Shown here: positions 607-29,519 of the stretch, one piece after another
How the letters are laid out: each line of letters opens with the position of its first letter
How positions within the stretch are numbered: position 1 is the first letter of the stretch
UHGV virus genome: UHGV-0314203
DNA from: a virus
Strand: one strand, 5' to 3'
Length of the DNA stretch: 32,844 nt
Notes under the pieces: model-generated
Told to the model about the DNA's origin: nothing
What the model saw: only the letters and a program-made list of their open reading frames with translations
Databases searched by the model: none
Translations under genes and position numbers: made by a program

Positions 607-1638
607 TCAAACAGTTGCTGTTGATGTTGGTAGTGTTGCCAGCGGATTAAACCGTAATGCAGTTTCCAGGTGATCCGGTGCCAGATGTGCGTAACGCATG
701 GTCATTTTTATGTCGTGATGTCCGAGGATTTTTTGCAAAGCAAGGATGTTTCCACCCGACATCATGAAGTGCGCCGCAAACGTATGGCGCAGAACGTGTG
801 TCAGTTGACCGCGAGGGAGCACGATAGACGTTTTTTCCATCACGGATAAAAATTGAAAATAGCAGTCTGTGAAGAAATTGAACCCATCAAGCGCCATAAT
901 CTCTTCATAAAGCTCTTTACTGATAGGGATGCTTCTGTTTTTCTTCCCCTTCGTTCTTACAAAGGTAATTCGGTATTTGGTCACCTGTGATCGGGTAAGG
1001 TTTATTGCTTCTCGCCAGCGTGCGCCTGTGCTTAAGCATATCTTGACTACCAGTGCCAGAATTGGGTCCTGACGTTTGCAATCAGCCAGCAGTTCAACAA
1101 TCTGCTCATGGGTAAGCCATGCCATCTCTTTTTCTGCGATGGTGAATTTTCGCATATTCTCCAGTGGGTTCGGATACGACCATTCGCCCAGGCGGGATAG
1201 TTCGCTAAAAACACTACTAAGATAGCTTTGCTCCAGGTTAATGGTGACCGGGCTGGCTCCTTTCTTCCATTTCTCGCTGAAGTAGATCTCACCTGTCAGG
1301 CGTTTATCTCGATAGTGAGCAAACATTTTAGATGTGAGATCGGTTGCAAGGGGATTGCCCAGGGCGTCAACCATCAGCAGCAATTTGTCATAGACATGCC
1401 GCCCAGCAGTCAGAGATTTACCATGTAGTTTGAACCATAGCTCAACCACGTCTTTCAGCGTTCGACGATCCACTGATTCGCCTAGCCAGGGCTTCGCTTC
1501 GGTTTCTTCCATCGTGTGACGCTCAAAAGCCAGAGCCTCGCCTTTGGTGGCGAATTGTTTACGCACACGACGCCCACTACGTCCGGCGGGATAACATTCG
1601 CAAAGCCATTTTCCTGTGGTGAGTTTTCGTACTGCCAT
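607..1638 (-). CDS. int: tyrosine recombinase / integrase, P2-186 type
   Basis: 343 aa; N-terminus MAVRKLTTGKW… and C-terminal LGHHDIKMTMRYAHL (H-x-x-R…Y catalytic region) typical of P2-family Int; sits at the prophage edge. Confidence 0.9.
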   Translation of the reverse strand: MAVRKLTTGKWLCECYPAGRSGRRVRKQFATKGEALAFERHTMEETEAKPWLGESVDRRTLKDVVELWFKLHGKSLTAGRHVYDKLLLMVDALGNPLATDLTSKMFAHYRDKRLTGEIYFSEKWKKGASPVTINLEQSYLSSVFSELSRLGEWSYPNPLENMRKFTIAEKEMAWLTHEQIVELLADCKRQDPILALVVKICLSTGARWREAINLTRSQVTKYRITFVRTKGKKNRSIPISKELYEEIMALDGFNFFTDCYFQFLSVMEKTSIVLPRGQLTHVLRHTFAAHFMMSGGNILALQKILGHHDIKMTMRYAHLAPDHLETALRFNPLATLPTSTATV

Positions 1639-1718: not shown

Positions 1719-2249
1719 TTACCTTAATTTATCAAGCTCTCGTTTATTTCTTTTATCATGTATATCATTAAGAAATAATATATTACTAGCAATGATACTA
1801 AATAACGCTATTATTTGTAGATATACTAATAACGCTGTGATAAAAAATCCAAACTTGCAGAACATGTGCTTATGCAAGGAAATGAAATCCAGATTTGAAA
1901 ATATAGGTTTCGTTAAATTTATTATAACAATAGAAAATATTACAATAGCTGAAATTATAATGGTTTTCACTATCAGCGTAATTCGCTCAATATCTTTTTC
2001 TGTTTCCTTATGATAGTTTATACTAGTTATTGTTGATGGCTTTACAATTGAACTTACAGCTGCAGGGTAAATATATGCAAGCCAAATACCTGCAATAGTG
2101 AAGATCATTGCAGAAATGTTTTGCAAGGTAGATAAAATATCTTTTATATCTGCATACGTATATTTGTCTCCGAACAAATAAGCAATAGCTATAATTGTTA
2201 GGAGAAAACATATGTGCAAAATTTTAGGTTTTATAATCATACTATGCAC
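1719..2249 (-). CDS. small integral membrane protein, about 4 predicted TM helices (cassette A, gene 2)
   Basis: 176 aa with four long hydrophobic segments (e.g. ILHICFLLTIIAIAYLF, FGFFITALLVYLQIIALFSIIASNILFL); very AT-rich; overlaps the upstream gene by 8 nt. Confidence 0.7.
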   Translation of the reverse strand: MHSMIIKPKILHICFLLTIIAIAYLFGDKYTYADIKDILSTLQNISAMIFTIAGIWLAYIYPAAVSSIVKPSTITSINYHKETEKDIERITLIVKTIIISAIVIFSIVIINLTKPIFSNLDFISLHKHMFCKFGFFITALLVYLQIIALFSIIASNILFLNDIHDKRNKRELDKLR

Positions 2250-3444
2250 CTATTTTATGAATCTGCACTGCTGTATCATTATCAGCTTCTGGTTGTTCTA
2301 TTATATCTTCATTTTTAAAACAATTCACCAAATCATTTCTATGAGCTTTTACTACACTCATTAAATATGAAGAAGAGTAATGTTTGTTTCTGTTAGAAAG
2401 GTCAACGTGAATTTCATGGCGATAAACATATTCATCTAACCAAGTAGTTGAACCATTTTTCCCATTTATTTTGAATCCGATGCGTGCGTGATCATTCCCT
2501 ACATTCTCATTGTTATTTTCTGTACCTTCTGAAATAGGATTATGGTTTTCTATATATTCATCGATGAGTTTAGTGAACTCTTCAGGCGTAGGCGTTCCTT
2601 CGACTAATAATTCAACGCGATGTTTTTTTGATAAAATAGGAGAGCTTCTTGAGAAAACATCTCCAACTGCATCAAATAACTTCTGCCATTTTTCCCGTGT
2701 ATCAGGTATGTTTGTTTCTATTACGTCATGGTAAACAATGTGAGTGATTTTTTTACACAGTTCTTCTATGTTTGCTCCACTCGTGATCATCCTTGTTTGT
2801 TTAGTCTGTACTTTAAAAACTAAACTTTCATCATCACCTTGAGAAAAAAGAACACGTTTGTAATGAACGTCTTCAGGTGAGTCATTACGAGGGCGAGTCA
2901 TATCTATGACTTTTTTATTAGGATGCTCCATCCTAAAGTCAACGTATGCTTTAATATAATGACAGAAAAGATCTGTATCCGTATTAGAACTTGGGAATCG
3001 TATGGATGCAATTTTGTTATACTCTGGAATTACCCAATAGTAGCAAGGTACGCCCCAGATATATTTACCGCCACCTTGAGTATCAGAGGCGGATACAACA
3101 TTATCTGAAGTGCCGTCAATCTTACTTTCAGCATCTATACCTTGAATATTTCCAGAGTTATCACCAAGCGTTTTCCAGATAACAAATAGATAATCTCCTG
3201 TCGTACTGTCATATGAAATATTTTTACAGTATGCTTTTGTTCTTCTATTATTATCCTTTCCCCATGGAACAGATTGTTCAACTGTTCTTGAACAGATCCA
3301 GCTATATAAGTTACACAGAACATGGGATAAGTTCTTTTCGACTAATTCCGGCGATTTGCCTTGTCGTATTTTATAAAGGCCAAACATTTCTAAATCAAAA
3401 AATGTTATAATGCCGCGTTCAGTTTTAAAGTTGGTTTTACTCAT
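2242..3444 (-). CDS. hypothetical 400-aa protein, no recognisable catalytic motif (cassette A, gene 1)
   Basis: Long ORF in AT-rich DNA, same strand as cI and int, 80 bp downstream of the cI stop; Asn/Asp/Lys-rich composition unlike the phage backbone. Confidence 0.7.
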   Translation of the reverse strand: MSKTNFKTERGIITFFDLEMFGLYKIRQGKSPELVEKNLSHVLCNLYSWICSRTVEQSVPWGKDNNRRTKAYCKNISYDSTTGDYLFVIWKTLGDNSGNIQGIDAESKIDGTSDNVVSASDTQGGGKYIWGVPCYYWVIPEYNKIASIRFPSSNTDTDLFCHYIKAYVDFRMEHPNKKVIDMTRPRNDSPEDVHYKRVLFSQGDDESLVFKVQTKQTRMITSGANIEELCKKITHIVYHDVIETNIPDTREKWQKLFDAVGDVFSRSSPILSKKHRVELLVEGTPTPEEFTKLIDEYIENHNPISEGTENNNENVGNDHARIGFKINGKNGSTTWLDEYVYRHEIHVDLSNRNKHYSSSYLMSVVKAHRNDLVNCFKNEDIIEQPEADNDTAVQIHKIGA

Positions 3445-3524: not shown

Positions 3525-4406
3525 TTAATTCGAAATGATTGTGCTTCTTATGCATGCAACTACCTCGATATCAGAAAATGCACATTCAAAGTAAGTTTCT
3601 TTACTTCTGATATTTATCATACCTTTAGGTAGCCTAGTAATTTGTCTGACGGAATAGGTTCCATCAATATTAATTAACCAGTATCCATCTAATACATCAG
3701 AAAATTTCTGATCACAGATGTATGCCACTAAACCATCCTGAACGACAATTGGTGCTGAAAGATTAGCGGGTAAAAATGACGAATCGAAAATATATGAGCC
3801 ACTCTCAACCATTTTACCTGCATTGAGATGAAATTTAGGCAGTTCTTTTACCGATGTTGTGAGAGCATTGTGCTCGCTGCCTTGTCCAGTGGCTAGCCAT
3901 AAAAGAGAATTTCCTGTTTCCAACGAACATTTTATGATCCAATCAGCCGGGAATGTGTCTCGCAAATATCTATTTGCCATAGTGCTTTTAGATACATTCA
4001 GATGGTCGGCAAGTTCCTGTCTTGTTTTAAAGCCATACGCTTTCATTAGCCTGTCTATTGCATCACGTCCGCCTGAGTCCAAATTCAGATCGTTCCCAAT
4101 TGGGGACTTCAGGGTGGTGGCTTGGGAAGCGTGCTGAACCTTTGATGCAGTTGCCTTTGACATAACCGGAGCCTCAGTACTCTGAGGGAATGGTACGCCT
4201 TTTCCGAATGAGAGCCACTCGATAGATGCACCCGTTTCAATTGCACACTGAATTACCCAGTCAGCAGGAAATACGTCACGCATCCAGCGCGTGCCCATAG
4301 TGCTTGCAGATACGTTGAACTGTTCGCACAGAGCTTGCCTTGTCTTGAATCCATACGCTTCAAGCATGCGCGTTATGACTGCTTGTCCTCCGTTTTTGAA
4401 ATTCAT
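3525..4406 (-). CDS. cI: phage 186 CI-type immunity repressor with a tandemly duplicated N-terminal HTH domain
   Basis: 293 aa; two copies of an about 60-aa unit (…MLEAYGFKTRQALCEQFNVSASTMGTRWMRDVFPADWVIQCAIETGASIEWL… and …LMKAYGFKTRQELADHLNVSKSTMANRYLRDTFPADWIIKCSLETGNSLLWL…) plus a C-terminal domain; divergent from the early operon. Confidence 0.75.
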   Translation of the reverse strand: MNFKNGGQAVITRMLEAYGFKTRQALCEQFNVSASTMGTRWMRDVFPADWVIQCAIETGASIEWLSFGKGVPFPQSTEAPVMSKATASKVQHASQATTLKSPIGNDLNLDSGGRDAIDRLMKAYGFKTRQELADHLNVSKSTMANRYLRDTFPADWIIKCSLETGNSLLWLATGQGSEHNALTTSVKELPKFHLNAGKMVESGSYIFDSSFLPANLSAPIVVQDGLVAYICDQKFSDVLDGYWLINIDGTYSVRQITRLPKGMINIRSKETYFECAFSDIEVVACIRSTIISN

Positions 4407-4432: not shown

Positions 4433-4461
4433 TTGACACTTCTCAAATGAAGAATTAGTGT
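4433..4461 (+). promoter_or_regulatory. sigma70-like early lytic promoter: TTGACA (4433-4438), 17-nt spacer, TAGTGT (4456-4461)
   Basis: Consensus -35 with a plausible -10, in the cI/early divergent intergenic region, oriented toward the Apl/Cox-like gene. Confidence 0.45.
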
Positions 4462-4530
4462 GTGCGAAAGTGAACTGAACAGGATTAATCACCAGTTACC
4501 ACACATCTTGTTAAACGAGGAATCTTGCAT

Positions 4531-4753
4531 CATGGCTCCACATATTTCAATCACCTTAGCTGTCCCATCTGTTTCTATTGAGAAATACAGTGAACTGACT
4601 GGGTTATCTATCGATACTATCAATGACATGCTGGCTGATGGACGCCTTATTCGCCATCGTCTCCGTAAAGATAAAAAGCGAGAAAAGGTAATGATCAATA
4701 TCGCAGCAATGACCGTTGATGCGCTCTCTGAATGCAATTTGAGTATTAACTAG
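4531..4753 (+). CDS. small Apl/Cox-like excisionase-regulator candidate
   Basis: 74 aa from ATG 4531 with GAGGA 10 nt upstream; first gene of the rightward operon, divergent from cI, as for 186 apl / P2 cox; sequence-level assignment is weak. Confidence 0.45.
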
Positions 4754-4785
4754 TTCCATTTTGGGATACATCAGGGGTGTCGACT

Positions 4786-5295
4786 ATGTTTGATTACCAA
4801 GTTTCCAAACATCCACATTTTGATGAAGCCTGTCGAGTATTCGCACTGCGCCACAACCTGGTGCAACTGGCAGAACGTGCAGGCATGAATGTGCAGATTC
4901 TGCGGAACAAGCTGAACCCAGCTCAACCTCATTTATTAACCGCACCAGAAATCTGGCTGCTTACCGATCTGACTGAAGATTCAACGCTTGTAGACGGTTT
5001 TCTGGCACAGATTCATTGTCTGCCATGTGTACCGATTAATGAGGTGGCAAAAGAGAAACTGCCACATTACGTCATGAGTGCAACCGCAGAGATCGGGCGT
5101 GTTGCTGCAGGTGCGGTATCTGGCGATGTAAAAACCAGTGCAGGTCGTCGTGATGCCATCAGCAGCATTAACTCTGTAACACGACTGATGGCGTTGGCTG
5201 CTGTTTCATTGCAGGCCCGTTTACAGGCTAACCCTGCGATGGCGAGTGCAGTTGATACCGTGACTGGCCTCGGTGCTTCATTCGGTTTGCTGTGA
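4786..5295 (+). CDS. cII: phage 186 CII-like regulatory protein
   Basis: About 169 aa from ATG 4786 ([24 protein letters not shown]…); size and N-terminus match my recollection of 186 CII; position after the apl-like gene. Confidence 0.65.
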
Positions 5296-6586: not shown

Positions 6587-7440
6587 GCACCATCCTGAAA
6601 TGGGCGGGAAATAAAACCGCAATTATGTCCGAACTGAAAAAACACCTTCCTGCTGGCCCGCGACTGGTTGAACCTTTCGCGGGTTCCTGTGCAGTGATGA
6701 TGGAGACGGATTACCCCAGCTATCTGGTTGCGGATATTAATCCTGATTTAATCAACCTCTATAAAAAGGTTGCCGCTGATTGTGAATCGTTTATATCTCG
6801 CGCCAGAGTTTTATTTGAGAACGCAAGCAGGGAGATGGATTATTACAACATAAGGCAGGAGTTTAATTACTCAACTGAAATTACTGATTTCATGAAAGCG
6901 GTATATTTCCTGTATCTCAATCGTCACGGTTACCGTGGTTTATGTCGCTATAACAAGAGCGGGCATTTCAACATTCCCTACGGTAATTATAAAAATCCGT
7001 ATTTCCCTGAAAAAGAAATTCGCGAATTTGCAGAAAAAGCCCAGCGAGCAACGTTTATCTGCGCCAGCTTTGATGAAACGCTGGCGATGTTGAAGGCGGG
7101 GGATGTGGTGTATTGCGATCCGCCGTATGACGGCACGTTTTCCGGTTATCACACTGACGGCTTCACTGAAGATGACCAGTATCACCTGGCATCCGTTCTT
7201 GAACATCGGTCATCAGAAGGACATCCGGTCATTGTTTCTAACAGTGACACATCCCTGATCCGTTCGCTGTATCGCAATTTTATTCACCACTACATCAAGG
7301 CAAAACGCAGCATCGGTGTGGCAGCTGGCGAGGGTAAATCAGCAACAGAAATCATTGCTGTTTCCGGGCCGCGCTGCTGGGTGGGATTTGATTATTCGCG
7401 TGGCGTGGACAGTTCTGCCGTGTACGGAGTACGTGCATGA
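6583..7440 (+). CDS. dam: DNA adenine (N6) methyltransferase, Dam-like orphan methylase
   Basis: 285 aa; N-terminal LKWAGNK…FAGSCAV (AdoMet-binding) and catalytic DPPY (YCDPPYDG) motifs. Confidence 0.85.
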
Positions 7441-9851
7441 GTCATGCCGATATGAACAACTGCTGCGGCTTTAACGAGGCTGCCGCAGCATTCTCATGGA
7501 ACAGCCCGAAAAAGGCCATTAACCCTTATCTGGACCCGGCGGAAGTTGCGCCGGTTTCTGCGCTTTCAAACCTGATCACTCTGTACGCTGCCGATAACGA
7601 GCAGGAACAACTGCGCCGCGAGGCACTGAGTGATCAGGTCTGGGAGCGTTATTTCTTTAATGAATCCCGTGATCCTGTCCAGCGCGAAATGGAGCAGGAT
7701 AAGCTAATTAGCCGGGCAAAGCTGGCGCATGAGCAGCAGCGTTTTAATCCAGACATGGTCATTCTGGCAGATGTCAACGCCCAGCCTTCCCATATCAGCA
7801 AGCCGCTGATGCAACGTATTAAATACTTCAGCAATCTGGGCAGGCCAAAGGCTTATTCCCGCTATTTGCGTGAGACGATTAAGCCATGCCTGGAACGACT
7901 GGAGCATGTACGCGACAGCCAGCTATCTGCATCTTTTCGTTTTATGGCAAGCCATGAAGGGCTGGACGGTCTGCTGATCCTGCCTGAAATGAGTCAGGAT
8001 CAGGTGAAACGCCTGTCCACCCTTGTCGCTGCGCATATGAGCATGTGTCTTGATGCCGCTTGTGGTGATTTGTACGCCTCCGATGATGTTAAGCCGGAAG
8101 AAATCCGCAAGACATGGGAAAAGGTGGCAGCAGAAACCCTGCGACTGGATGTCATACCACCTGCGTTTGAGCAACTCCGCCGGAAAAGAAACCGCCGCAA
8201 ACCTGTGCCCTATGAACTCATTCCGGGTTCGCTGGCGCGTATGTTGTGCGCCGACTGGTGGTACCGGAAATTATGGAAGATGCGTTGCGAATGGCGGGAA
8301 GAGCAGTTGCGTGCTGTCTGTCTGGTCAGCAAAAAAGCATCTCCCTATGTCAGCTATGAAGCCGTGATGCATAAACGTGAGCAGCGCCGTAAGTCGCTGG
8401 AGTTTTTCCGTTCTCATGAACTGGTGAACGAAGACGGCGACACGCTGGACATGGAGGATGTGGTAAACGCCAGCAGCAGCAACCCGGCGCATCGCCGCAA
8501 TGAGATGATGGCCTGCGTTAAAGGTCTGGAGCTTATCGCGGAAATGCGTGGTGACTGCGCCGTTTTCTACACCATCACCTGTCCGTCACGTTTCCATTCC
8601 ACGCTAAATAACGGCAGGCCAAACCTGACCTGGACCAACGCGACAGTAAGACAAAGCAGCGATTATCTGGTCGGCATGTTTGCTGCATTTCGTAAGGCTA
8701 TGCACAAAGCCGGATTGCGCTGGTATGGCGTGCGGGTGGCTGAGCCGCATCATGACGGTACAGTTCACTGGCACCTGTTGTGTTTTATGCGCAAAAAAGA
8801 TCGCCGCGCCATTACTGCTTTGTTGCGTAAGTTTGCCATTCGTGAAGACCGCGAGGAGCTGGGGAATAACACGGGACCACGCTTTAAGTCTGAGTTGATT
8901 AACCCGCGCAAAGGAACGCCGACAAGCTACATCGCGAAATATATCAGCAAGAACATTGACGGGCGTGGTCTGGCTGGCGAGATCAGCAAGGAAACGGGTA
9001 AATCTCTGCGTGATAACGCTGAATACGTGAATGCCTGGGCGTCTTTGCATCGTGTTCAGCAATTCCGCTTCTTTGGCATTCCGGGGCGCCAGGCTTACCG
9101 TGAACTGCGATTGCTGGCTGGTCAGGCGGCAAGGCAACAGGGTGACAAAAAAGCAGGTGCGCCGGTACTGGATAACCCGCGCCTTGATGCAATCCTGGCT
9201 GCTGCTGATGCTGGTTGTTTTGCCACCTACATCATGAAGCAGGGCGGCGTACTGGTTCCCCGCAAATATCACCTCATCAGAACTGCTTATGAAATTAACG
9301 AAGAGCCGACCGCCTATGGCGATCACGGCATTCGTATTTATGGCATCTGGTCACCCATTGCAGAGGGCAAGATCTGCACTCATGCCGTGAAGTGGAAAAT
9401 GGTTCGTAAGGCCGTTGACGTTCAGGAGGCGGCAGCCGACCAGGGCGCTTGCGCCCCTTGGACTCGTGGCAATAACTGTCCCCTTGCTGAAAATTTGAAC
9501 CAACAAGGGAAAGACAAATCAGCTGATGGGGATACCAGGACGGACATTACCCGCATGGATGACAAGGAGTTGCACGATTACCTGCACAGTATGAGCAAAA
9601 AAGAGCGCCGGGAACTGGCTGCAAGGTTACGCCTGGTGAAGCCGAAACGGCGTAAAGACTACAAACAGCGAATTACAGACCATCAGCGACAGCAACTCGT
9701 CTATGAACTGAAGTCCAGAGGATTTGATGGCAGCGAGAAAGAGGTCGATTTACTCCTTCGCGGCGGCAGTATTCCGTCAGGAGCAGGCCTGCGTATCTTC
9801 TATCGGAACCAGCGTTTGCAGGAAGATGATAAGTGGCGAAACCTGTATTAA
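7437..9851 (+). CDS. A: replication initiation endonuclease, P2 gene A type
   Basis: 804 aa, the largest early ORF, at the position of P2 A / 186 A; the internal minus-strand ORFs are antisense artefacts. Confidence 0.8.
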
Positions 9852-9945
9852 TTACGCGGGTTAACAATTCGTGCTCTTAATAATACTAGGCATATCAGGC
9901 TGATGAACGTAAAAAAACGTTTTACATCAGTAAGATTATTATATA

Positions 9946-9961
9946 CTGTAAATATAAACAG
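9946..9961 (+). promoter_or_regulatory. LexA (SOS) box CTGT-N8-ACAG (ctgtaaatataaacag)
   Basis: Perfect CTGT/ACAG half-sites with an 8-nt AT-rich spacer, about 45 nt upstream of the ORF at 10005. Confidence 0.6.
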
Positions 9962-10004
9962 TGGTTAAGTATACAGTATTGCTTGTGGTGTCATAGGAGG
10001 AAAG

Positions 10005-10193
10005 ATGCAGGACTATTTTTTGGAGTCTTTGAAGCTCCAGCGCATTGATTTTTTTCTTAAGCTTGTAGCGGCTAGTGAGTGTAGTGATGAAGAGAAGGGG
10101 CTGGCTTTGCAGTGGGTTTCTGAACTAACAGATGAACTCATGGCAAAAATCAGAACCCACGAATACAACCGCTCAATGGATGTCATCAGCTGA
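10005..10193 (+). CDS. small hypothetical protein (62 aa), first gene of the SOS-controlled pair
   Basis: ATG 10005 with AGGAGG upstream (tcataggaggaaag-ATG); directly downstream of the LexA box. Confidence 0.45.
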   Translation: MQDYFLESLKLQRIDFFLKLVAASECSDEEKGLALQWVSELTDELMAKIRTHEYNRSMDVIS

Positions 10194-10203
10194 GGTGACT
10201 TTT

Positions 10204-10437
10204 ATGCGCATTGAAATAATGATCGATAAAGAGCAGAAGATTAGCCAGTCTACCCTGGACGCCCTTGAATCCGAGCTTTACCGCAATCTGCGCCCCCTGT
10301 ATCCAAAAACGGTAATTCGTATCCGCAAAGGTAGCTCTAACGGTGTGGAACTGACTGGGCTGCAACAGGACGAAGAAAGAAAACAAGTGATGAAAATTAT
10401 GCAGAAGGTGTGGGAAGACGACAGCTGGCTGCATTAA
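10204..10437 (+). CDS. DinI-family protein
   Basis: 77 aa from ATG 10204 (MRIEIMIDKEQ…KIMQKVWEDDSWL), closely following the pattern of E. coli DinI; GAGGTGA 6 nt upstream. Confidence 0.75.
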   Translation: MRIEIMIDKEQKISQSTLDALESELYRNLRPLYPKTVIRIRKGSSNGVELTGLQQDEERKQVMKIMQKVWEDDSWLH

Positions 10438-10572
10438 GAAACGTTGCTGGCGTCTGAACTTGCTTCTGGCGTCAGCAAGGTTGAACAACGAGCCCTTGCG
10501 AGGCGTTAGCTCTGTAGTGCATGTCTATGCCGCATGAGATCGCATGATCGTTTGAGGATCGTTTTTGCTAAG

Positions 10573-10596
10573 GCCCGCCAGAACTGGCGGGCTTTT
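10573..10596 (+). terminator. rho-independent terminator (gcccgccag / ctggcgggc stem, then TTTT)
   Basis: Perfect inverted repeat followed by a T-run, downstream of the DinI-like gene. Confidence 0.6.
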
Positions 10597-10636
10597 GCGT
10601 AGATCATGCAGGTGCATGAAAACCACTACATAAAGC

Positions 10637-10660
10637 GGGCAGGCGTGGCGGGGATACGAG
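10637..10660. other. candidate cos (cohesive-end) region, G-rich gggcaggcgtggcggggatacgag
   Basis: Contains GGCGTGGCGGGGA, which matches my recollection of the start of the 186/P2 19-nt cohesive end; lies between the replication region and portal Q as expected; unverified. Confidence 0.3.
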
Positions 10661-10746: not shown

Positions 10747-10929
10747 ATGGAATACTTAAGCGAAATCATTAGTTTTTTGGCAGGGGCGGGTATCAGTTGG
10801 GCTATTACTTTCAATGTGTATAATTACAAAGTAAAGCAAATTTGTATGAACCAAAGTTCTCCCATTCAAAATGGAAATACAGTGACAAACGGAAGCATTG
10901 TCGGTAGAGATCAGACTAATTCTCACTAA
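10747..10929 (+). CDS. small single-TM protein (60 aa) ending in an NGSIVGxxQTN motif (cassette B, gene 1)
   Basis: ATG 10747 with GGAGG upstream; hydrophobic IISFLAGAGISWAITFNVY; the C-terminal motif recurs at the start of the next ORF. Confidence 0.5.
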   Translation: MEYLSEIISFLAGAGISWAITFNVYNYKVKQICMNQSSPIQNGNTVTNGSIVGRDQTNSH

Positions 10930-10942
10930 GGGAGTGATTGGT

Positions 10943-11509
10943 GTGTTTAGTAAACAGGAGCAATCAGGTAATAGAGTAAGAAATGGGAGTATTGTTGGAG
11001 GGAGTCAAACAAACCACATTACCAATATAGTTCGTAGTAGTAATCGAACTTTAGAGCGTTTGTACCAAAAGTTCTCTCAAGAAGATGGAACTATGGGGGG
11101 GCAGGATTTTTGTGATAAGTTAAAGCACTATTTAGCCTCGGATACCAATCCAGATATAAGAGATTTAGCTACAAAGCTAACTGATAGTGATAGAACTGAA
11201 TTAATTTACTTTGCAACTGCTCTTAAAGAGCAAGCCCTCAAGGCGATAATGAAGTGCCAATCTTCCAAAACCGCACAAGAAATATATGCGTTTATTCTTG
11301 ATAAAATTCATGCTGATTTTATGCTCAAAATTATACCTCTTATTCAGAAGGATGAGGACCGAGTAATTGTTGATGAAAAAATTTCATTGGTATTAGAAAA
11401 TATTAGTGAAATGTTGGGCGATAATTTGTTAAACTTATCCGAAAAGGATCTTTTGGGACTGTTGTATTTTTTAGGCGGAAATTGTTATATAAGGTGGGAT
11501 AAATGTTAG
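10943..11509 (+). CDS. hypothetical mostly alpha-helical protein (about 188 aa; cassette B, gene 2)
   Basis: GTG 10943 with AAGGGAG 8 nt upstream (the ORF track starts it at TTG 10898); N-terminus repeats the NGSIVGxxQTN motif; stop overlaps the next start. Confidence 0.55.
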   Translation: MFSKQEQSGNRVRNGSIVGGSQTNHITNIVRSSNRTLERLYQKFSQEDGTMGGQDFCDKLKHYLASDTNPDIRDLATKLTDSDRTELIYFATALKEQALKAIMKCQSSKTAQEIYAFILDKIHADFMLKIIPLIQKDEDRVIVDEKISLVLENISEMLGDNLLNLSEKDLLGLLYFLGGNCYIRWDKC

Positions 11510-12003
11510 TTTATCATCCAGCATATGATGCCTATCATTGTCTATTTAGAATGATGGCAATTATGGAAAATACAAATCGGCTTGAGATTGATAAGCTTAA
11601 AATATTGGATTTTTACATTTTATTTCCTGCGTTATTAAGTGAAGTGAAAATGCCGAGAGAATTTATTAAAATTAAAAAAACAGCAAAGCTACATCATAAT
11701 GAATATCATGATCCATTGAGTCCAAGGATTATTTTCAAGGAAATGCGTCAAATACAGGATGCAGCACTAAAATGTATGCTTGCGACTGGTTATATTGATT
11801 CTGATGATTTCAGCAATGGTTTTGTCTCAAGAACAAATAAACAATTACCACTGAACCTAGCCTTAGAAATGGGCGTTTTTTTAGAGCGCAAAGAACCGTT
11901 TTCATCTTTCATTACACAAAAGATGGCTAAATTTCATCTGACTGGACCTGATGGATTGAAGGCTAGAACTAAACTTATGGAGTATAGATATGACACTTAT
12001 TAA
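11503..12003 (+). CDS. hypothetical protein (166 aa; cassette B, gene 3)
   Basis: ATG 11503 with AAGGTGGG upstream; overlaps gene 2 by 7 nt and gene 4 by 14 nt (translational coupling). Confidence 0.65.
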   Translation: MLVYHPAYDAYHCLFRMMAIMENTNRLEIDKLKILDFYILFPALLSEVKMPREFIKIKKTAKLHHNEYHDPLSPRIIFKEMRQIQDAALKCMLATGYIDSDDFSNGFVSRTNKQLPLNLALEMGVFLERKEPFSSFITQKMAKFHLTGPDGLKARTKLMEYRYDTY

Positions 12004-13894
12004 GCCTACTCTTATTGTAACCAGATTAACAGTTTTTCAACACGGACATCGTGCATTTGATTGTGAATTCCACAAAGGTGTTAACATTATTCGTGGGCGA
12101 AATAGTTCTGGTAAAACTACAATAATGGATATGCTGGCATTTTCATTGGGAGCTGAAAATATCAGGTGGAAACCACAGGCTTTGAAATGCACTAGAACAA
12201 TCGTTGAAGTGCTTCTCAATAATGAGAAAGCATGCTTTAAACGAGAGATATCTATTGAGCAAATGCGACCTCTTTATATTTATTGGGGAGCGATGGATAA
12301 GGCTTTGAATGCTGGGGAACACGAATGGGAATTATACCCATTCAAGAGAACTGAGAGTAAAATTAGCTTCACCCAAGCTATTTTCAATGCATTATCAATG
12401 CCCTTGGCACAAGGTGCTGGTTCTTCTAATTTGACATTGCATCAGATTTTACGTGTCTTGTATGCAGATCAGCCGTCGTTACATAGTCCAATTTTTCGAT
12501 TTGACAGATTTGATAATGCTCTTACCCGTGAGACGGTAGGTGGATACTTATGTGGTGTTTATAATGATGAGTTGTACAATGCACAACTTTCTTTAAGAGA
12601 TGTTGAGACCGAACTAACAAAGAAAGTTACTGAATTAAAAAGTATCTTTACTGTATTAGGTAGATCTGGACAGGCTCCAGATTTACAAGGTATTGATGAG
12701 AAAATAAAGCATCTAAATAAATTGAGAGCTATTGAGAATGTAAAACTAACAAATAGAGCTATTATAACTAATGAAGAAGGGGCTGATTCTGAAAAACGAA
12801 TGGGTACTATCAGGGAGGAACTCAATGAAGCTAAAAGGAAATTATCTTCCCTAAAAGATAAAATCCAATCTTTGGATTTTGAAATTTCAGATTCTGATAT
12901 GTTTATATCAGAATTAAATGAGCGGCTAAAAAACTTAGAACAGTCTGGAGAAACGCGTGCTATATTTGATAGTATGAATTTTGATTTTTGCCCTAGTTGT
13001 CTTTCCAAAATAGATAAGGCTCATAATGATCATGTTTGTCATCTATGTAAAGTGGAACAATTAGATGATAAAGCTGAAAATCAGTTATTAAGAATGAAAA
13101 ATGAATTAACTCTTCAAATCAAAGAATCTCTTCAATTAATGGATAGAAGAAAAGAAGAGTTGGTAAGATTAAAGCGAGATGTTCCTTTAGCTGAGAGTGA
13201 ATTAAAAAGGCTTGAACAGGATTATTTCAAAGAGTCACACTATTGGTCTTCACCGCAAGAGTTAGCTGTAGGTAAAATATATAGGGAAATTGGACGGCTT
13301 GATGAAGAAATAAAAAGAGCTTATGAAGATAAGAAGCTTATTGTTGTTATTAATGAACTTCAAGAGCGTCGCGATGAACTTCAGGCGGAAAAAAATAGAC
13401 TTGATGATCTTATTGAACTTTATGAAGAAAAAGAGGAAGTTCTTAAAGATAAAATTTATGCTTCAGTGAGCTCAATAGCACAAGAGCTTTTACAAGAAGA
13501 TTTGCCTTTGCAAAAAGAGTTTATGTCTCCTGAAAGTGTGGAGTTTAGTTTTACTGATAATAGCGTTTATGTGAATGGTAGTAAGAACTTTTCTGAAAGT
13601 TCAGCTGTAGTATTAAGGCATATATTCCATTTGGCACTACTTTCAGCAAGTATAGAGAACCACTCAATGCGACTTCCAAGATTTATGATGTTAGATGGGA
13701 TCGACGATGGTGGAATGGAAAAAGAACGGAGTCACAATTTACAGGAAATAATAATTGATGAGTGCTCACGTTATGAACATGATTATCAGTTGATATTTGC
13801 AACATCTGAAATAAATCCCAAATACAGTGAGAGTGAATATATTGTTGGTGAGTATTATTCGCCAGATAATTATTCATTGAAAATAATTGAGTGA
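11990..13894 (+). CDS. SMC/Rad50/RecF-like ABC ATPase with a long coiled coil and paired CxxC motifs (cassette B, gene 4)
   Basis: 634 aa; N-terminal Walker A GRNSSGKTT in an SMC_N-like context; central Glu/Lys/Leu-rich coiled coil; CPSC-x14-CHLC at 12989-13048; C-terminal signature-like FSESS and Walker-B-like FMMLDGIDD. Confidence 0.8.
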   Translation: MTLIKPTLIVTRLTVFQHGHRAFDCEFHKGVNIIRGRNSSGKTTIMDMLAFSLGAENIRWKPQALKCTRTIVEVLLNNEKACFKREISIEQMRPLYIYWGAMDKALNAGEHEWELYPFKRTESKISFTQAIFNALSMPLAQGAGSSNLTLHQILRVLYADQPSLHSPIFRFDRFDNALTRETVGGYLCGVYNDELYNAQLSLRDVETELTKKVTELKSIFTVLGRSGQAPDLQGIDEKIKHLNKLRAIENVKLTNRAIITNEEGADSEKRMGTIREELNEAKRKLSSLKDKIQSLDFEISDSDMFISELNERLKNLEQSGETRAIFDSMNFDFCPSCLSKIDKAHNDHVCHLCKVEQLDDKAENQLLRMKNELTLQIKESLQLMDRRKEELVRLKRDVPLAESELKRLEQDYFKESHYWSSPQELAVGKIYREIGRLDEEIKRAYEDKKLIVVINELQERRDELQAEKNRLDDLIELYEEKEEVLKDKIYASVSSIAQELLQEDLPLQKEFMSPESVEFSFTDNSVYVNGSKNFSESSAVVLRHIFHLALLSASIENHSMRLPRFMMLDGIDDGGMEKERSHNLQEIIIDECSRYEHDYQLIFATSEINPKYSESEYIVGEYYSPDNYSLKIIE

Positions 13895-13959: not shown

Positions 13960-14988
13960 TCAAAGTACGTATGGTCTAAATCTAATTATTTCTATTTCAA
14001 GCCAGTCGTTTAATTGATCAAATCTTTTCTGCATGGGCACCAATTCATTGCGCATAAATACCTTACTAGCCTTCTCCACATCCCCAAACCCCCCAACATT
14101 ATTCGGCAAAATTCCCATCATCTGAGGCGGTACGCGGTGTGCAGCCATCATGTCGTCCCGGCTCACGTTCTTGATGTTCAGAAATTCATCTTTCGCTGCG
14201 ACTTCTGACAACGGGATAATCTGAAGTCCGTCCTTTTTGCCGTTAGGCGAGTACATAAACAGATTGCGGAAGTTGCCTGGACCTTTGGCGCTTTTCATCG
14301 CGTTGCGGAGGTTGTTCACATCCTCCTGATTCTGCGCGGCGTCGGTCATGTACATGATGAAGCCTGCATGACTACCGTTGATGTAATACTTACGGCGGAA
14401 CAGCGTGGCGGATTCGTTGAGCAGGGCGGATGGAATGGCAGAAAGATAGCCGGGCAGGCCGTAGATCTCCTGGTTGATGTCCGGTTCCATCAGATGAAAA
14501 ATGCTGCCTTTCGTGAACTGATACGGCTGGGTTGTCATACCGTATTGCACAAACCAGTAGGTATCCAGGTCTAACCCGCGTCGGGTGTATTTTGCCAGCG
14601 CAGGCTCAAGGGCGATAACTTCACCGAATCGGTTCGTGCGTTTCTCCAGGTAGGCGTTACCAAATACCAGATAGTCCTGCACAAAACGCGAAAAAGCCTG
14701 TTGGCTGAGCAGCGGATGAGGGATATAGGTACTGGTCAGAATGTTGCACTTTACTGCAATCGGGGAACTGTGATGCACGGCAGCGCGGAAGGTGCGCGCC
14801 AGTCCGTCAAAGCTGACGGGAGGCTCATACCAGCGATCTGTCTGAACACATTCCACATAGTCCAGCAGTTCGCGGCGGTCAAGTACTGGAACGGGATCAC
14901 CGAAGCTGAATGCTTCGGCTGAAGTCTGGTTTTTATGCTGGATCTGATTCGTCGCCGCAGTGCGGTTCTTCTTACTCTTTCCCATCAA
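13960..14988 (-). CDS. Q: portal protein (P2 gpQ-like)
   Basis: 342 aa, size and position as P2 Q; stop overlaps the terminase gene start. Confidence 0.85.
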   Translation of the reverse strand: MMGKSKKNRTAATNQIQHKNQTSAEAFSFGDPVPVLDRRELLDYVECVQTDRWYEPPVSFDGLARTFRAAVHHSSPIAVKCNILTSTYIPHPLLSQQAFSRFVQDYLVFGNAYLEKRTNRFGEVIALEPALAKYTRRGLDLDTYWFVQYGMTTQPYQFTKGSIFHLMEPDINQEIYGLPGYLSAIPSALLNESATLFRRKYYINGSHAGFIMYMTDAAQNQEDVNNLRNAMKSAKGPGNFRNLFMYSPNGKKDGLQIIPLSEVAAKDEFLNIKNVSRDDMMAAHRVPPQMMGILPNNVGGFGDVEKASKVFMRNELVPMQKRFDQLNDWLEIEIIRFRPYVL

Positions 14989-16751
14989 AAAATCTCCACA
15001 ATATTGCTGGTATTGGCGGATTCGCCCTGCAGCGGTTCGTTAAACAGTGCGTGCATCGTTGCCCAGGCCAGATCGGCGTGGCTGGCTTCTTCGCTGCGGC
15101 TGGCTTCATAGGTCGGGCGGTTGCCACTGGCGGTGGTGGCGCGACGTATTGCCATAAAGGACTGCGCTATGTCGGTGTGTCCGGCGTCAAACTCCAGACG
15201 GCGGTGGCTGATAATGTCGTAGGCCTTGAGTACCAGGGCGTTTTTAACGTTGGGGTTGTAGACAAACTCCCGGACGGCAGGAAAAAACGCTTTCACGTTC
15301 TCGTAAACCCCGTGACCAACGCCGGTTGAGTCGATACCGATATAGGTCACGTTGTACTGTTCGGTCAGTTTTTTGATGGCGTCAGCCTGGGCGCGGAAGT
15401 CCATCCCGCGCCACTGGTGACGCTCAAGAATGCGGAACTTACCACCCGGCACGGCTGGCGGTGCCACCACCACGCATCCGGCGCTGTCGCCGTTTTGCGT
15501 GCCTTTTGCCGGGTCATAACCGATCCACACTTCGCGCCAGCCAAACGGGCGCAGCGCCAGTGCATGAAAGTCGGTCCAGACTTCCCAACTGTCCACCATG
15601 CACGCCTGCAGCTCGCTGAGCGGAAACACGGACGCGAGATCGTCCACAAACTCGCACATCAGCAGGTTCTGGTATTCGTCCGGGCTGTACTCCATGCGTA
15701 GCTGGTCGAGGTCGAACAGGTTACAGCCGCCGCGCACCGCATCTTCCACGGTGACTATCTGGCGGTATTGCCCGTCTGCGCACAGCAGGCCGGGGGCCAG
15801 ATTGCTGTGGGACAGGTCGATGTCCACCTTATCGGCTTTGTTGCGCCCACGGTTGAACAGCGCACCGGACCAGAACGGATAAGCACTGTGTGTCAGACTG
15901 GATGGCGTGGAAAAATAGGTTTGTCGCCATTTTTTGTGAATAGCCATACCGGAAGCCACTTTGCGCAGCTCCTGGAATTTTGGTATCCAGAAATATTCAT
16001 CCAGATACAGGTTGCCGTGATAACTCTGGGCCGTGCGGGCATTGGTGCCGAGGAAATACAGTGTGGCCCCGTTGGGAAGCACCATCGGATCGCCTTTCAG
16101 CTCCACCTCTACTTCTTTGGCAAAGTCGATGATGTACTGTTTGAAGACGTGGGCCTGTGCCTTACTGGCAGAAAGGAAAATCTGGTTACGTCCGGTCAGC
16201 AGGGCGTCAATCAGGGCTTCACGGGCAAAATAGAAGGTCGCGCCGATCTGGCGTGACTTCAGCAGGTTGCGGATGCGGTTGGTTTTTCCGGCTTCCCACC
16301 AGTGGCGCTGGTAGTTGAACATGGAGGAATGGAAGATTTCTTCCAGCTTCTCAATCTGTTCATCGGTGAAAACATTCTTTTCCGGCTGACGGCGTGGGCC
16401 TTTGTTGCGGTTGGCGACGTTAGGGTTTAAGTCGGCTTCGTTGCCGCCATTGTTAAACTTGCCGATCCGCGCGTGGCGCTCAGACTGGCGCGCCAGCAGG
16501 TCAATCTCTTTGAAATCTTTCCCTTCTTTGTGCTCCTTCATAATGAGCTGGCAGTAGCGTGCGGCGGTGGTGAGCTGCATCTGATCCAGCGGCCCATAGT
16601 CACCCCACTTGTCGCGTTTTTTCCAGCTGTGAACGGTTGCAACTTTCTCGCCCAGCATTTCAGCAATGCGGGCTACGCGGTATCCCTGAAAGTACAGCAG
16701 CATGGCCTGCCGACGGGGATCGAGATCTGCGGGTGTCAGTGTGGTGTTCAT
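14985..16751 (-). CDS. P: terminase large (ATPase) subunit (P2 gpP-like)
   Basis: 588 aa, size and position as P2 P, divergent from the capsid operon. Confidence 0.85.
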   Translation of the reverse strand: MNTTLTPADLDPRRQAMLLYFQGYRVARIAEMLGEKVATVHSWKKRDKWGDYGPLDQMQLTTAARYCQLIMKEHKEGKDFKEIDLLARQSERHARIGKFNNGGNEADLNPNVANRNKGPRRQPEKNVFTDEQIEKLEEIFHSSMFNYQRHWWEAGKTNRIRNLLKSRQIGATFYFAREALIDALLTGRNQIFLSASKAQAHVFKQYIIDFAKEVEVELKGDPMVLPNGATLYFLGTNARTAQSYHGNLYLDEYFWIPKFQELRKVASGMAIHKKWRQTYFSTPSSLTHSAYPFWSGALFNRGRNKADKVDIDLSHSNLAPGLLCADGQYRQIVTVEDAVRGGCNLFDLDQLRMEYSPDEYQNLLMCEFVDDLASVFPLSELQACMVDSWEVWTDFHALALRPFGWREVWIGYDPAKGTQNGDSAGCVVVAPPAVPGGKFRILERHQWRGMDFRAQADAIKKLTEQYNVTYIGIDSTGVGHGVYENVKAFFPAVREFVYNPNVKNALVLKAYDIISHRRLEFDAGHTDIAQSFMAIRRATTASGNRPTYEASRSEEASHADLAWATMHALFNEPLQGESANTSNIVEIF

Positions 16752-29216: not shown

Positions 29217-29519
29217 ATGAGCGATAAGCAGACTGAAAAGACTATTCAACTGGATACCCCCATCAAGCGCGGTAAAACAGAAATCACCGAAATTGTGCTG
29301 CGTAAACCGCAGTCCGGTGCGCTGCGCGGTACACGCCTGCAGGCCATTATGGATATGGATGTGAACGCGATGATAACCGTGATCCCCCGCATCTCCAGTC
29401 CGGCACTGACTTCACAGGAAATTGCAGAGATGGACCCGGCAGATCTCACTGCCATGTCGGTTGAGATTGTCACTTTTTTGTTGAAGAAGTCGGTGCTTGC
29501 CGGTTTACCGACAGCCTGA
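29217..29519 (+). CDS. E: tail assembly chaperone (P2 gpE-like), zero-frame product
   Basis: 100 aa; immediately upstream of the tape-measure gene; contains the slippery site near its 3' end. Confidence 0.75.
   Translation: MSDKQTEKTIQLDTPIKRGKTEITEIVLRKPQSGALRGTRLQAIMDMDVNAMITVIPRISSPALTSQEIAEMDPADLTAMSVEIVTFLLKKSVLAGLPTA

Follow-up and report, generated by a model that had tools for sequence, protein, structure and literature searches.

The short region lying directly downstream of the gene A replicase homologue in this 32.8 kb P2/186-like (Peduoviridae) prophage is very probably the SOS-induction operon of a P2-like prophage of the Fels-2/PSP3 type, in which a LexA-repressed antirepressor (TumA) is encoded together with an accessory DinI-family protein (TumB). 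The whole 32.8 kb stretch of DNA that was analyzed is referred to below as the window. The sequence elements, homologies, conservation and genomic context described here were observed directly. The module is already known, ordinary and very common, and a split tum gene had been described for both Fels-2 and PSP3, a precedent that the initial annotation did not mention. That annotation had pointed to a perfect CTGT-N8-ACAG box preceding a 62-aa ORF (ORF62) and a DinI-family ORF in another frame, and all three are present as it described. It had also proposed a Tum-like, LexA-controlled antirepressor with its function either split between the two products or residing in one of them, and this is borne out by a profile alignment of ORF62, by the 41% identity of the DinI-family protein to the C-terminal half of 186 Tum, and by a promoter similar to p95 of phage 186.

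The coordinates of the relevant features are given in Table 1. The tum module directly follows gene A, an order that matches those of 186, PSP3, Fels-2 and DuoHS, and beyond it lie more cargo, the portal and terminase genes (minus strand) and then the late genes. The cargo downstream of tumA and tumB is, in this prophage, a Lamassu/ABC-3C-like set. The DNA sequences most closely related to positions 9852–10650 come from P2-like phages of Escherichia, Klebsiella, Salmonella and Yersinia. The initial annotation had suggested comparisons with 186 Tum and with the product of 186 orf97; both ORFs match Tum (ORF62 by profile), whereas no homologue of orf97 was found in the window. An Rfam scan of the whole window returned no RNA family.

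Table 1. Features of the prophage early region and of the tumA-tumB operon, in window coordinates.
Feature	Position	Strand	Description and basis
Integrase	607-1638	-	
Two-gene cargo	1719-3444	-	
cI	3525-4406	-	Immunity repressor of the 186 type, 293 aa, tandem pair of HTH domains; presumed TumA target; Pfam
apl/cox-position ORF	4460-4753		
cII	4777-5295		
Small early genes and Dam methylase	6583-7440		
Gene A replicase homologue	7437-9851		
-35 hexamer	9921-9926	+	TTTACA of p95-like promoter, 17 nt upstream of TACTGT; read from sequence
LexA (SOS) box	9944-9963	+	TACTGTAAATATAAACAGTG; 17/20 positions match consensus TACTGTATATATATACAGTA
-10 hexamer	9944-9949	+	TACTGT, coinciding with bases 1-6 of the LexA box
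tumA ribosome-binding site	9995-10000	+	AGGAGG; sequence
tumA	10005-10193	+	62-aa ORF, ATG 10005 to TGA 10193; 186 Tum N-domain homologue
tumB ribosome-binding site	10192-10197	+	GAGGTG; sequence
tumB	10204-10437	+	77-aa DinI-family protein; Pfam PF06183, start from tblastn
Hairpin	10444-10478	+	Strong, without U-tract, directly 3' of tumB; fold
Intrinsic terminator	10573-10596	+	GCCCGCCA-GAAC-TGGCGGGC-TTTT, end of the two-gene operon; sequence and fold

The core of the LexA box, CTGTAAATATAAACAG (9946–9961), is the sole CTGT-N8-ACAG motif in the window. By itself, this 8-base core is only weakly improbable, since 0.35 copies are expected in the window and at least one was found in 32 of 100 shuffled sequences; the complete 20-mer TACTGTAAATATAAACAGTG is the only site in the window with three or fewer mismatches (0/100 shuffles). 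The overlapping promoter was not listed by a generic promoter scan, its match to the consensus being weak, because TACTGT fits TATAAT at only three of six positions. The -35 hexamer shows no variation in 34 distinct related sequences, 81 of 83 near-identical loci have kept the LexA box, and among close loci the -35, spacer, box and ribosome-binding site are almost invariant, the most variable stretch being the leader from 9964 to 9990. Across the wider family, a perfect CTGT-N8-ACAG lies within 150 nt upstream of the gene in 173 of 183 loci, representing 61 distinct TumA-like proteins (some only ~35% identical), and the distance from box to start codon is usually 34–59 nt. The arrangement of box, ORF62 and DinI ORF is not a chance occurrence. 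A second LexA site was considered at TATACAGTA, near 9972–9980, and rejected, as it is only a half-site and lies where the leader varies most.

Downstream of tumB, the RNA fold of positions 10438–10600 has an energy of -68.5 kcal/mol (z = -3.4), and none of 200 shuffled sequences was equally stable. The hairpin nearest the gene is possibly a partial terminator or stabilizer, predicted at a position corresponding to that of t95a, which is annotated directly after tum in the 186 record. The intrinsic terminator that follows is nearly invariant among relatives. The terminator scan also flagged a hairpin at 10182–10199, considered as a structure that hides the tumB ribosome-binding site or acts as an attenuator, and this was discarded (z of -1.2 against shuffles, and two stem substitutions that are uncompensated).

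Pairwise BLASTP gave no alignment of ORF62 with either 186 Tum or PSP3 TumA. A lack of Tum similarity, which the initial annotation had named as grounds for abandoning its reading, would in a pairwise comparison be a false negative, because BLASTP finds nothing. Profiles were compared for two families: an ORF62 family from an exhaustive search (66 representatives after clustering at the 50% level, almost all of them 55–75 aa long), and a Tum N-domain family collected with the N-terminal 69 residues of 186 Tum. When 30 diverse sequences of the former were aligned with 19 of the latter using hhalign, the match had a probability of 95.9% (E 5e-9) and paired residues 3–44 with residues 3–44. Common to both families is the pattern E-x3-(L/I)-(Q/E)-R-(I/V)-(D/E)-h-h-x-(R/K)-L-x-A-x3-C-x3-(D/E)-(K/R)-x-h-A-h-x-W/L-h-x-E-h. 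The ORF62 profile also matched PSP3 TumA alone, weakly. In the PHROGs database, ORF62 belongs to phrog_698 and cross-matches phrog_1993 as well as phrog_8554, a family that has a Yersinia phage 'tum protein' among its members. The N-domain of 186 Tum, in turn, matches phrog_698, the family of ORF62 (E 6.4e-6, residues 7–44), as well as phrog_189 (Tum itself), phrog_1993 (the PSP3 TumA family) and phrog_8554. Because the hhalign result and the PHROG cross-matches agree, ORF62 is assigned to the Tum N-domain superfamily as a diverged member, and is referred to here as TumA.

Searches of Pfam and NCBIfam with ORF62 found no family in either. The AlphaFold model of TumA is a two-helix hairpin (helices 2–23 and 28–61, pLDDT 89), and its composition is acidic (12 D/E and 7 K/R residues). 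Foldseek searches of the PDB with this model returned generic helical hairpins only, all with E > 2, and no solved structure related to TumA by sequence was found. Among relatives, the substitutions in tumA and tumB are almost all synonymous.

The mechanically called DinI ORF spans 10132–10437, and the real start of tumB is the ATG at 10204, which is not the first ATG. The gene is in a different frame from ORF62, with a gap of 10 nt after the ORF62 stop codon. Its product matches Pfam PF06183 (DinI) over the entire profile (positions 1–63 of 63; 82.3 bits against a cut-off of 24.2, 3.1e-23), is 77% identical to PSP3 TumB, and is 41% identical over 75 residues to the C-terminal half of 186 Tum (residues 71–145, E 8e-25). 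It also has the conserved C-terminal VWEDDSW motif that is shared with the Tum C-domain. Against the NCBIfam equivalog for chromosomal E. coli DinI (NF007893), it scored 43.8 bits, below the cut-off of 111. By these comparisons, TumB is classed as a phage paralogue of the TumB/Tum C-domain type and not as an orthologue of host dinI. The alignment of 186 Tum with TumB begins exactly at the residue of the GTG start at 29292 from which, in the 186 record, a DinI-only product is annotated; that product is described as a modulator of SOS induction and not as an antirepressor.

To survey the module, 80 loci from IMG/VR (found with the DinI protein) and 95 found with four diverged TumA-like proteins were combined with phage and genome records. 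Among the 183 loci, 95 carry TumA only, 86 have the split arrangement and one (186) is fused. Examples of the TumA-only type are Cronobacter phage ESSI-2, Escherichia phage ESSI2_ev015 and Yersinia phage vB_YenM_06.16-2. Judged from these loci, the module has a conserved core, made up of TumA and its LexA box, to which a DinI part may or may not be added. The existence of DinI-free TumA loci fits an antirepressor activity that resides in TumA. Of 5426 complete E. coli genomes, 1146 carry the module, a single genome having as many as four copies, and its products are annotated there as a 'hypothetical protein' and a 'DinI-like family protein'.

The nearest characterized relatives are the prophages Fels-2, from Salmonella, and DuoHS, from E. 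coli HS. TumA is identical at 61 of 62 residues to STM2728 of Fels-2 and to the tum product of DuoHS (ECHS_RS04495, the difference being T51S), and TumB at 76 of 77 residues to STM2726.1 and to the DinI protein ECHS_RS04500, respectively. Their upstream regions, comprising the -35, LexA box and ribosome-binding site, match the window almost base for base, and their modules likewise follow the Dam methylase and gene A. They differ in the downstream cargo and in the partner CI, which has 293 aa and tandem HTH domains in the window but 210 aa in Fels-2 and 189 aa in DuoHS. In DuoHS, induction by mitomycin C is abolished both by an in-frame Δtum and by lexA(Ind-), and the Δtum strain shows neither lysis nor virions after mitomycin C while its SOS reporter still responds (PMC12055606).

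PSP3 (NC_005340) has the same organization as the window, with a LexA box over the promoter, a gene of ~60 aa and a 77-aa DinI-like gene, all following gene A, and its CI has tandem HTH domains like those of the window CI (286 aa). In the PSP3 record, tumB is annotated and tumA carries the comment 'similar to 5' end 186 tum; UV induction of prophage'. The two TumA proteins are highly diverged (phrog_1993 versus phrog_698), and while PSP3 tumA and tumB share a frame, with a stop codon and 3 nt between them, those of the window are in different frames and 10 nt apart. According to a statement in Lemire et al. 2011 (PMC3121763, citing Bunny et al. 2002 and G. Christie, personal communication), a stop codon splits tum in Fels-2 and PSP3, and the antirepressor activity of PSP3 is in the upstream gene.

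In 186 itself, tum is driven by the LexA-regulated promoter p95 and its product sequesters CI (PMC7708051); Tum binds CI reversibly and blocks operator binding without cleavage (cited in PMC3121763 and PMC7708051). As in the window, p95 follows gene A and its annotated -10, TACTGT, is overlapped by a LexA box, and the CI targeted by 186 Tum is of the same type as that of the window. The two promoters differ in the -35 (TTCACA, 18 nt upstream of TACTGT in 186; TTTACA, 17 nt, in the window) and in the leader from box to start (18 nt against 41 nt). In place of two ORFs, 186 has a single 146-aa Tum with the two domains fused, for which internally initiated shorter products are annotated, and its operon carries orf97, which the window lacks. 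Lemire et al. 2011 described 186 Tum as roughly double the length of other antirepressors, its second half being DinI-like (PMC3121763). The same study provides a more distant parallel in Gifsy-1, -2 and -3 (GfoA, GftA, GfhA), where, as here, a LexA-repressed operon specifies a DinI homologue and a small non-proteolytic antirepressor. These are lambdoid phages with dinI as the first gene of the operon, and their antirepressors and repressors are, as far as tested, unrelated in sequence to TumA and the 186-type CI. Non-polar deletions of dinI left the induction of Gifsy-1 and Gifsy-3 unaffected (PMC3121763).

By analogy with these systems, host LexA in an undamaged lysogen would bind the box overlapping the -10 and keep the promoter shut; because TACTGT forms the first six bases of the box, LexA bound there would occlude the -10. 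DNA damage would activate RecA, LexA would cleave itself, and the promoter would fire to give a short bicistronic tumA-tumB transcript ending at the intrinsic terminator. TumA would then bind the prophage CI non-covalently and stop it from binding its operators, with CI remaining uncleaved, and derepression of the early lytic promoter would lead to prophage induction. TumB is probably an accessory protein, dispensable for antirepression, whose most likely role is to modulate RecA filaments and, through them, the SOS signal; its counterparts in 186 are the C-terminal half of Tum and the annotated, internally initiated short products. The need for tum and for a cleavable LexA comes from published experiments on genes 98% identical or homologous to those of the window, and probably holds here too. 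We infer the direct binding of TumA to CI in the window phage, which CI domain it touches, and what TumB does.

Of the two possibilities raised in the initial annotation, the comparisons favor an activity located in the upstream ORF alone, because of the published statement on PSP3, the phenotype of DuoHS Δtum and the many TumA-only loci. An antirepressor made of two polypeptides, in which TumA and TumB act jointly as a complex that re-creates full-length Tum and neither is enough alone, is an improbable arrangement here. It would agree with 186, where both domains are on one polypeptide, and with the lineage of the window, in which tumA and tumB are always adjacent, 10 nt apart, and served by one promoter and one terminator. 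The DuoHS deletion does not strictly separate the two genes, because Δtum might also reduce translation of tumB and so lower its expression. Against joint action are the 95 of 183 loci (ESSI-2 and Yersinia phages among them) in which a LexA-boxed TumA-like gene has no downstream DinI gene, the annotation of the 186 DinI-only product as a modulator rather than an antirepressor, and, in the statements of Lemire et al. 2011, the activity of the PSP3 upstream gene and the lack of effect of Gifsy dinI deletions on induction (PMC3121763).

The operon might instead be an SOS accessory cassette unrelated to induction, with the DinI protein tuning the host SOS response, ORF62 a passenger, and the prophage induced by other means or never. 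The prototype phage P2 is not known to be SOS-inducible, and ORF62 is a 'hypothetical protein' in public annotation, without a Pfam family and of unknown function in PHROGs. Such a cassette is nevertheless very unlikely, given that ORF62 is homologous to the Tum N-domain, that the repressor belongs to the 186 CI type and not to the P2 C type, that TumA divergence tracks the divergence of the CI N-domain (see below), and that DuoHS is no longer induced by mitomycin C once its nearly identical tum gene is deleted in frame (PMC12055606). Least credible of all, to the point of being nearly negligible, is induction of the lambda style, in which activated RecA would cleave CI and the LexA-controlled operon would be dispensable. 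Cleavage by RecA is the default model for temperate phages, and nothing specific to this prophage speaks for it. The window CI consists of two Phage_CI_repr HTH domains (4.6e-59) and a Phage_CI_C domain (1.2e-25); since the Pfam scan reported no match to an S24 (LexA-like) peptidase, autocleavage as in lambda is not expected. In DuoHS, moreover, lexA(Ind-) and Δtum each block induction despite an intact RecA (PMC12055606).

The CI of the window is 30% identical to PSP3 CI (full length), 44% to that of Fels-2 and 49% to that of DuoHS, and the identical CI/TumA pair recurs in another locus (L054). Because the phages used for testing tum have CIs different from this one, a productive pairing with TumA is something we infer. 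TumA proteins at least 96.8% identical to ORF62 adjoin 16 CI types (85% identity clustering threshold), which range from 177 to 318 aa, are often only 35–60% identical to each other, and include five with tandem HTH domains. Across the 16 types, the operator-proximal HTH domain has a mean identity of 72.6% (54.5–97%) and the C-terminal domain one of 33%. The CIs of 186 and PSP3, which are paired with other Tum N-domain variants, have HTH domains only 42–46% identical to those of the 16-type group.

When 125 distinct TumA/CI combinations were compared (7750 pairs), the identity of TumA was correlated with that of the CI N-domain (Pearson 0.44, Mantel p 0.001), with a partial correlation of 0.375 when the C-domain is controlled for; the partial correlation with the C-domain, controlling for the N-domain, is -0.02, in a sample of loci that were collected by similarity and are phylogenetically non-independent, and with C-domain divergence near saturation. 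In these values, TumA divergence tracks the HTH domain of CI and not its C-terminal domain. They suggest a contact of TumA with the HTH domain and perhaps an action across immunity types, and because of the biased sampling, the kinship of the loci and the near saturation of the C-domain, this is a lead and not a result. The co-variation is compatible with a reversible binding of TumA to CI that blocks the operators without cleavage. A more far-reaching reading, which we regard as tentative and somewhat doubtful, is that TumA of the Fels-2 type is a broad-spectrum antirepressor that recognizes the HTH N-domain of CI rather than its oligomerization domain, and that could thereby inactivate many heteroimmune CIs and cross-induce co-resident P2-like prophages. 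On this reading, the tandem-HTH CIs of the window and PSP3 may represent a variant with an altered TumA stoichiometry or threshold for induction.

To the picture drawn from 186, PSP3 and Fels-2, this operon adds nothing new, and the main practical value of the analysis is a correction of annotation. For annotators, the module would indicate a prophage that is SOS-inducible via an antirepressor and not via repressor cleavage, and the 62-aa 'hypothetical protein' that roughly one in five complete E. coli genomes encodes is probably the induction trigger; the same protein occurs in many P2-like prophages of Salmonella, Klebsiella and Yersinia. Current family resources miss the link: PHROGs 698, 8554 and 1993 are labeled 'unknown function', and Tum in its full length appears under 'DinI'. 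Thousands of annotations would be mended by one common family named 'Tum N-domain antirepressor'. If it is true that one TumA serves many CI immunity types through their HTH domains, this would bear on the cross-induction of prophages in polylysogens.

The leader that separates the LexA box of the tum operon from its ribosome-binding site is 41 nt long, compared with 18 nt in phage 186, and includes a segment containing TATACAGTA, which resembles a LexA half-site. This segment is the most variable stretch of the module when close relatives are compared, and it may be the leftover of a duplicated box, or else be unconstrained. At the other end of the operon, the 3' untranslated region that follows tumB is almost without variation among relatives and is unusually structured, with a hairpin lacking a U-tract, an imperfect stem in the centre and then the terminator. 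An Rfam scan of the whole window gave no match. In PSP3, a hairpin of different sequence is found in the same position, and the region may be the counterpart of t95a, a partial terminator annotated directly after tum in 186.

Directly 3' of the tum operon terminator lies a set of three ABC-3C/Lamassu-like genes (10898–13894), which is bordered on its other side by two minus-strand ORFs interpreted, from their position and size, as the genes for portal and terminase. The cargo carried at the same place in the Salmonella prophage Fels-2, the E. coli HS prophage DuoHS and phage 500465-1 differs from this set. Two further genes, situated between the integrase gene and cI, match a candidate defence pair of PADLOC, and a Pfam domain was found in neither of the encoded proteins. 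The adjacent repressor, CI, carries two HTH domains in tandem followed by a CI_C domain, a layout shared with the CI of PSP3 and with four further CI types (IMG/VR loci L020, L035, L042 and L077), whereas the CI proteins of Fels-2, DuoHS and 186 have a single HTH domain.

Features of the tum operon flanks, the repressor and the neighbouring cargo genes
Feature	Position	Strand	Details
PDC-M18A match, 400 aa	within 1719–3444	-	PADLOC, E 1.3e-35
PDC-M18B match, 176 aa	within 1719–3444	-	PADLOC, E 6.2e-24
CI repressor	3525–4406	-	Phage_CI_repr HTH at residues ~5–70 and ~111–176
Leader segment	9964–9990	+	
tumB 3' untranslated region	10438–10600	+	-68.5 kcal/mol, z -3.4
Hairpin, 11 bp	10444–10478	+	
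ABC-3C CTD9-domain protein, 203 aa	10898–11509	+	domain match
MC5 middle component	11503–12003	+	plus weak LmuC match
LmuB-like ABC/SMC ATPase, 634 aa	11990–13894	+	similarity
Minus-strand ORF	13960–14988	-	
Minus-strand ORF	14985–16751	-	

The Tum N-domain superfamily is spread across four PHROGs (698, 8554, 1993 and 189), three of which are labelled 'unknown function', and full-length Tum is listed there under 'RecA filament binding protein DinI'. ORF62 (tumA) is a 'hypothetical protein' in RefSeq and a 'levan regulatory domain protein' in one phage record. This scattered labelling is a gap in annotation and not a biological surprise. Among the close homologues of the N-domain of 186 Tum, many are short proteins in their own right (63–90 aa), and some of these bear the name 'Tum protein' in Salmonella, Kluyvera, Klebsiella, Enterobacter and Edwardsiella. 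Fused and split forms of Tum therefore appear to have interconverted inside the 186-type lineage as well.
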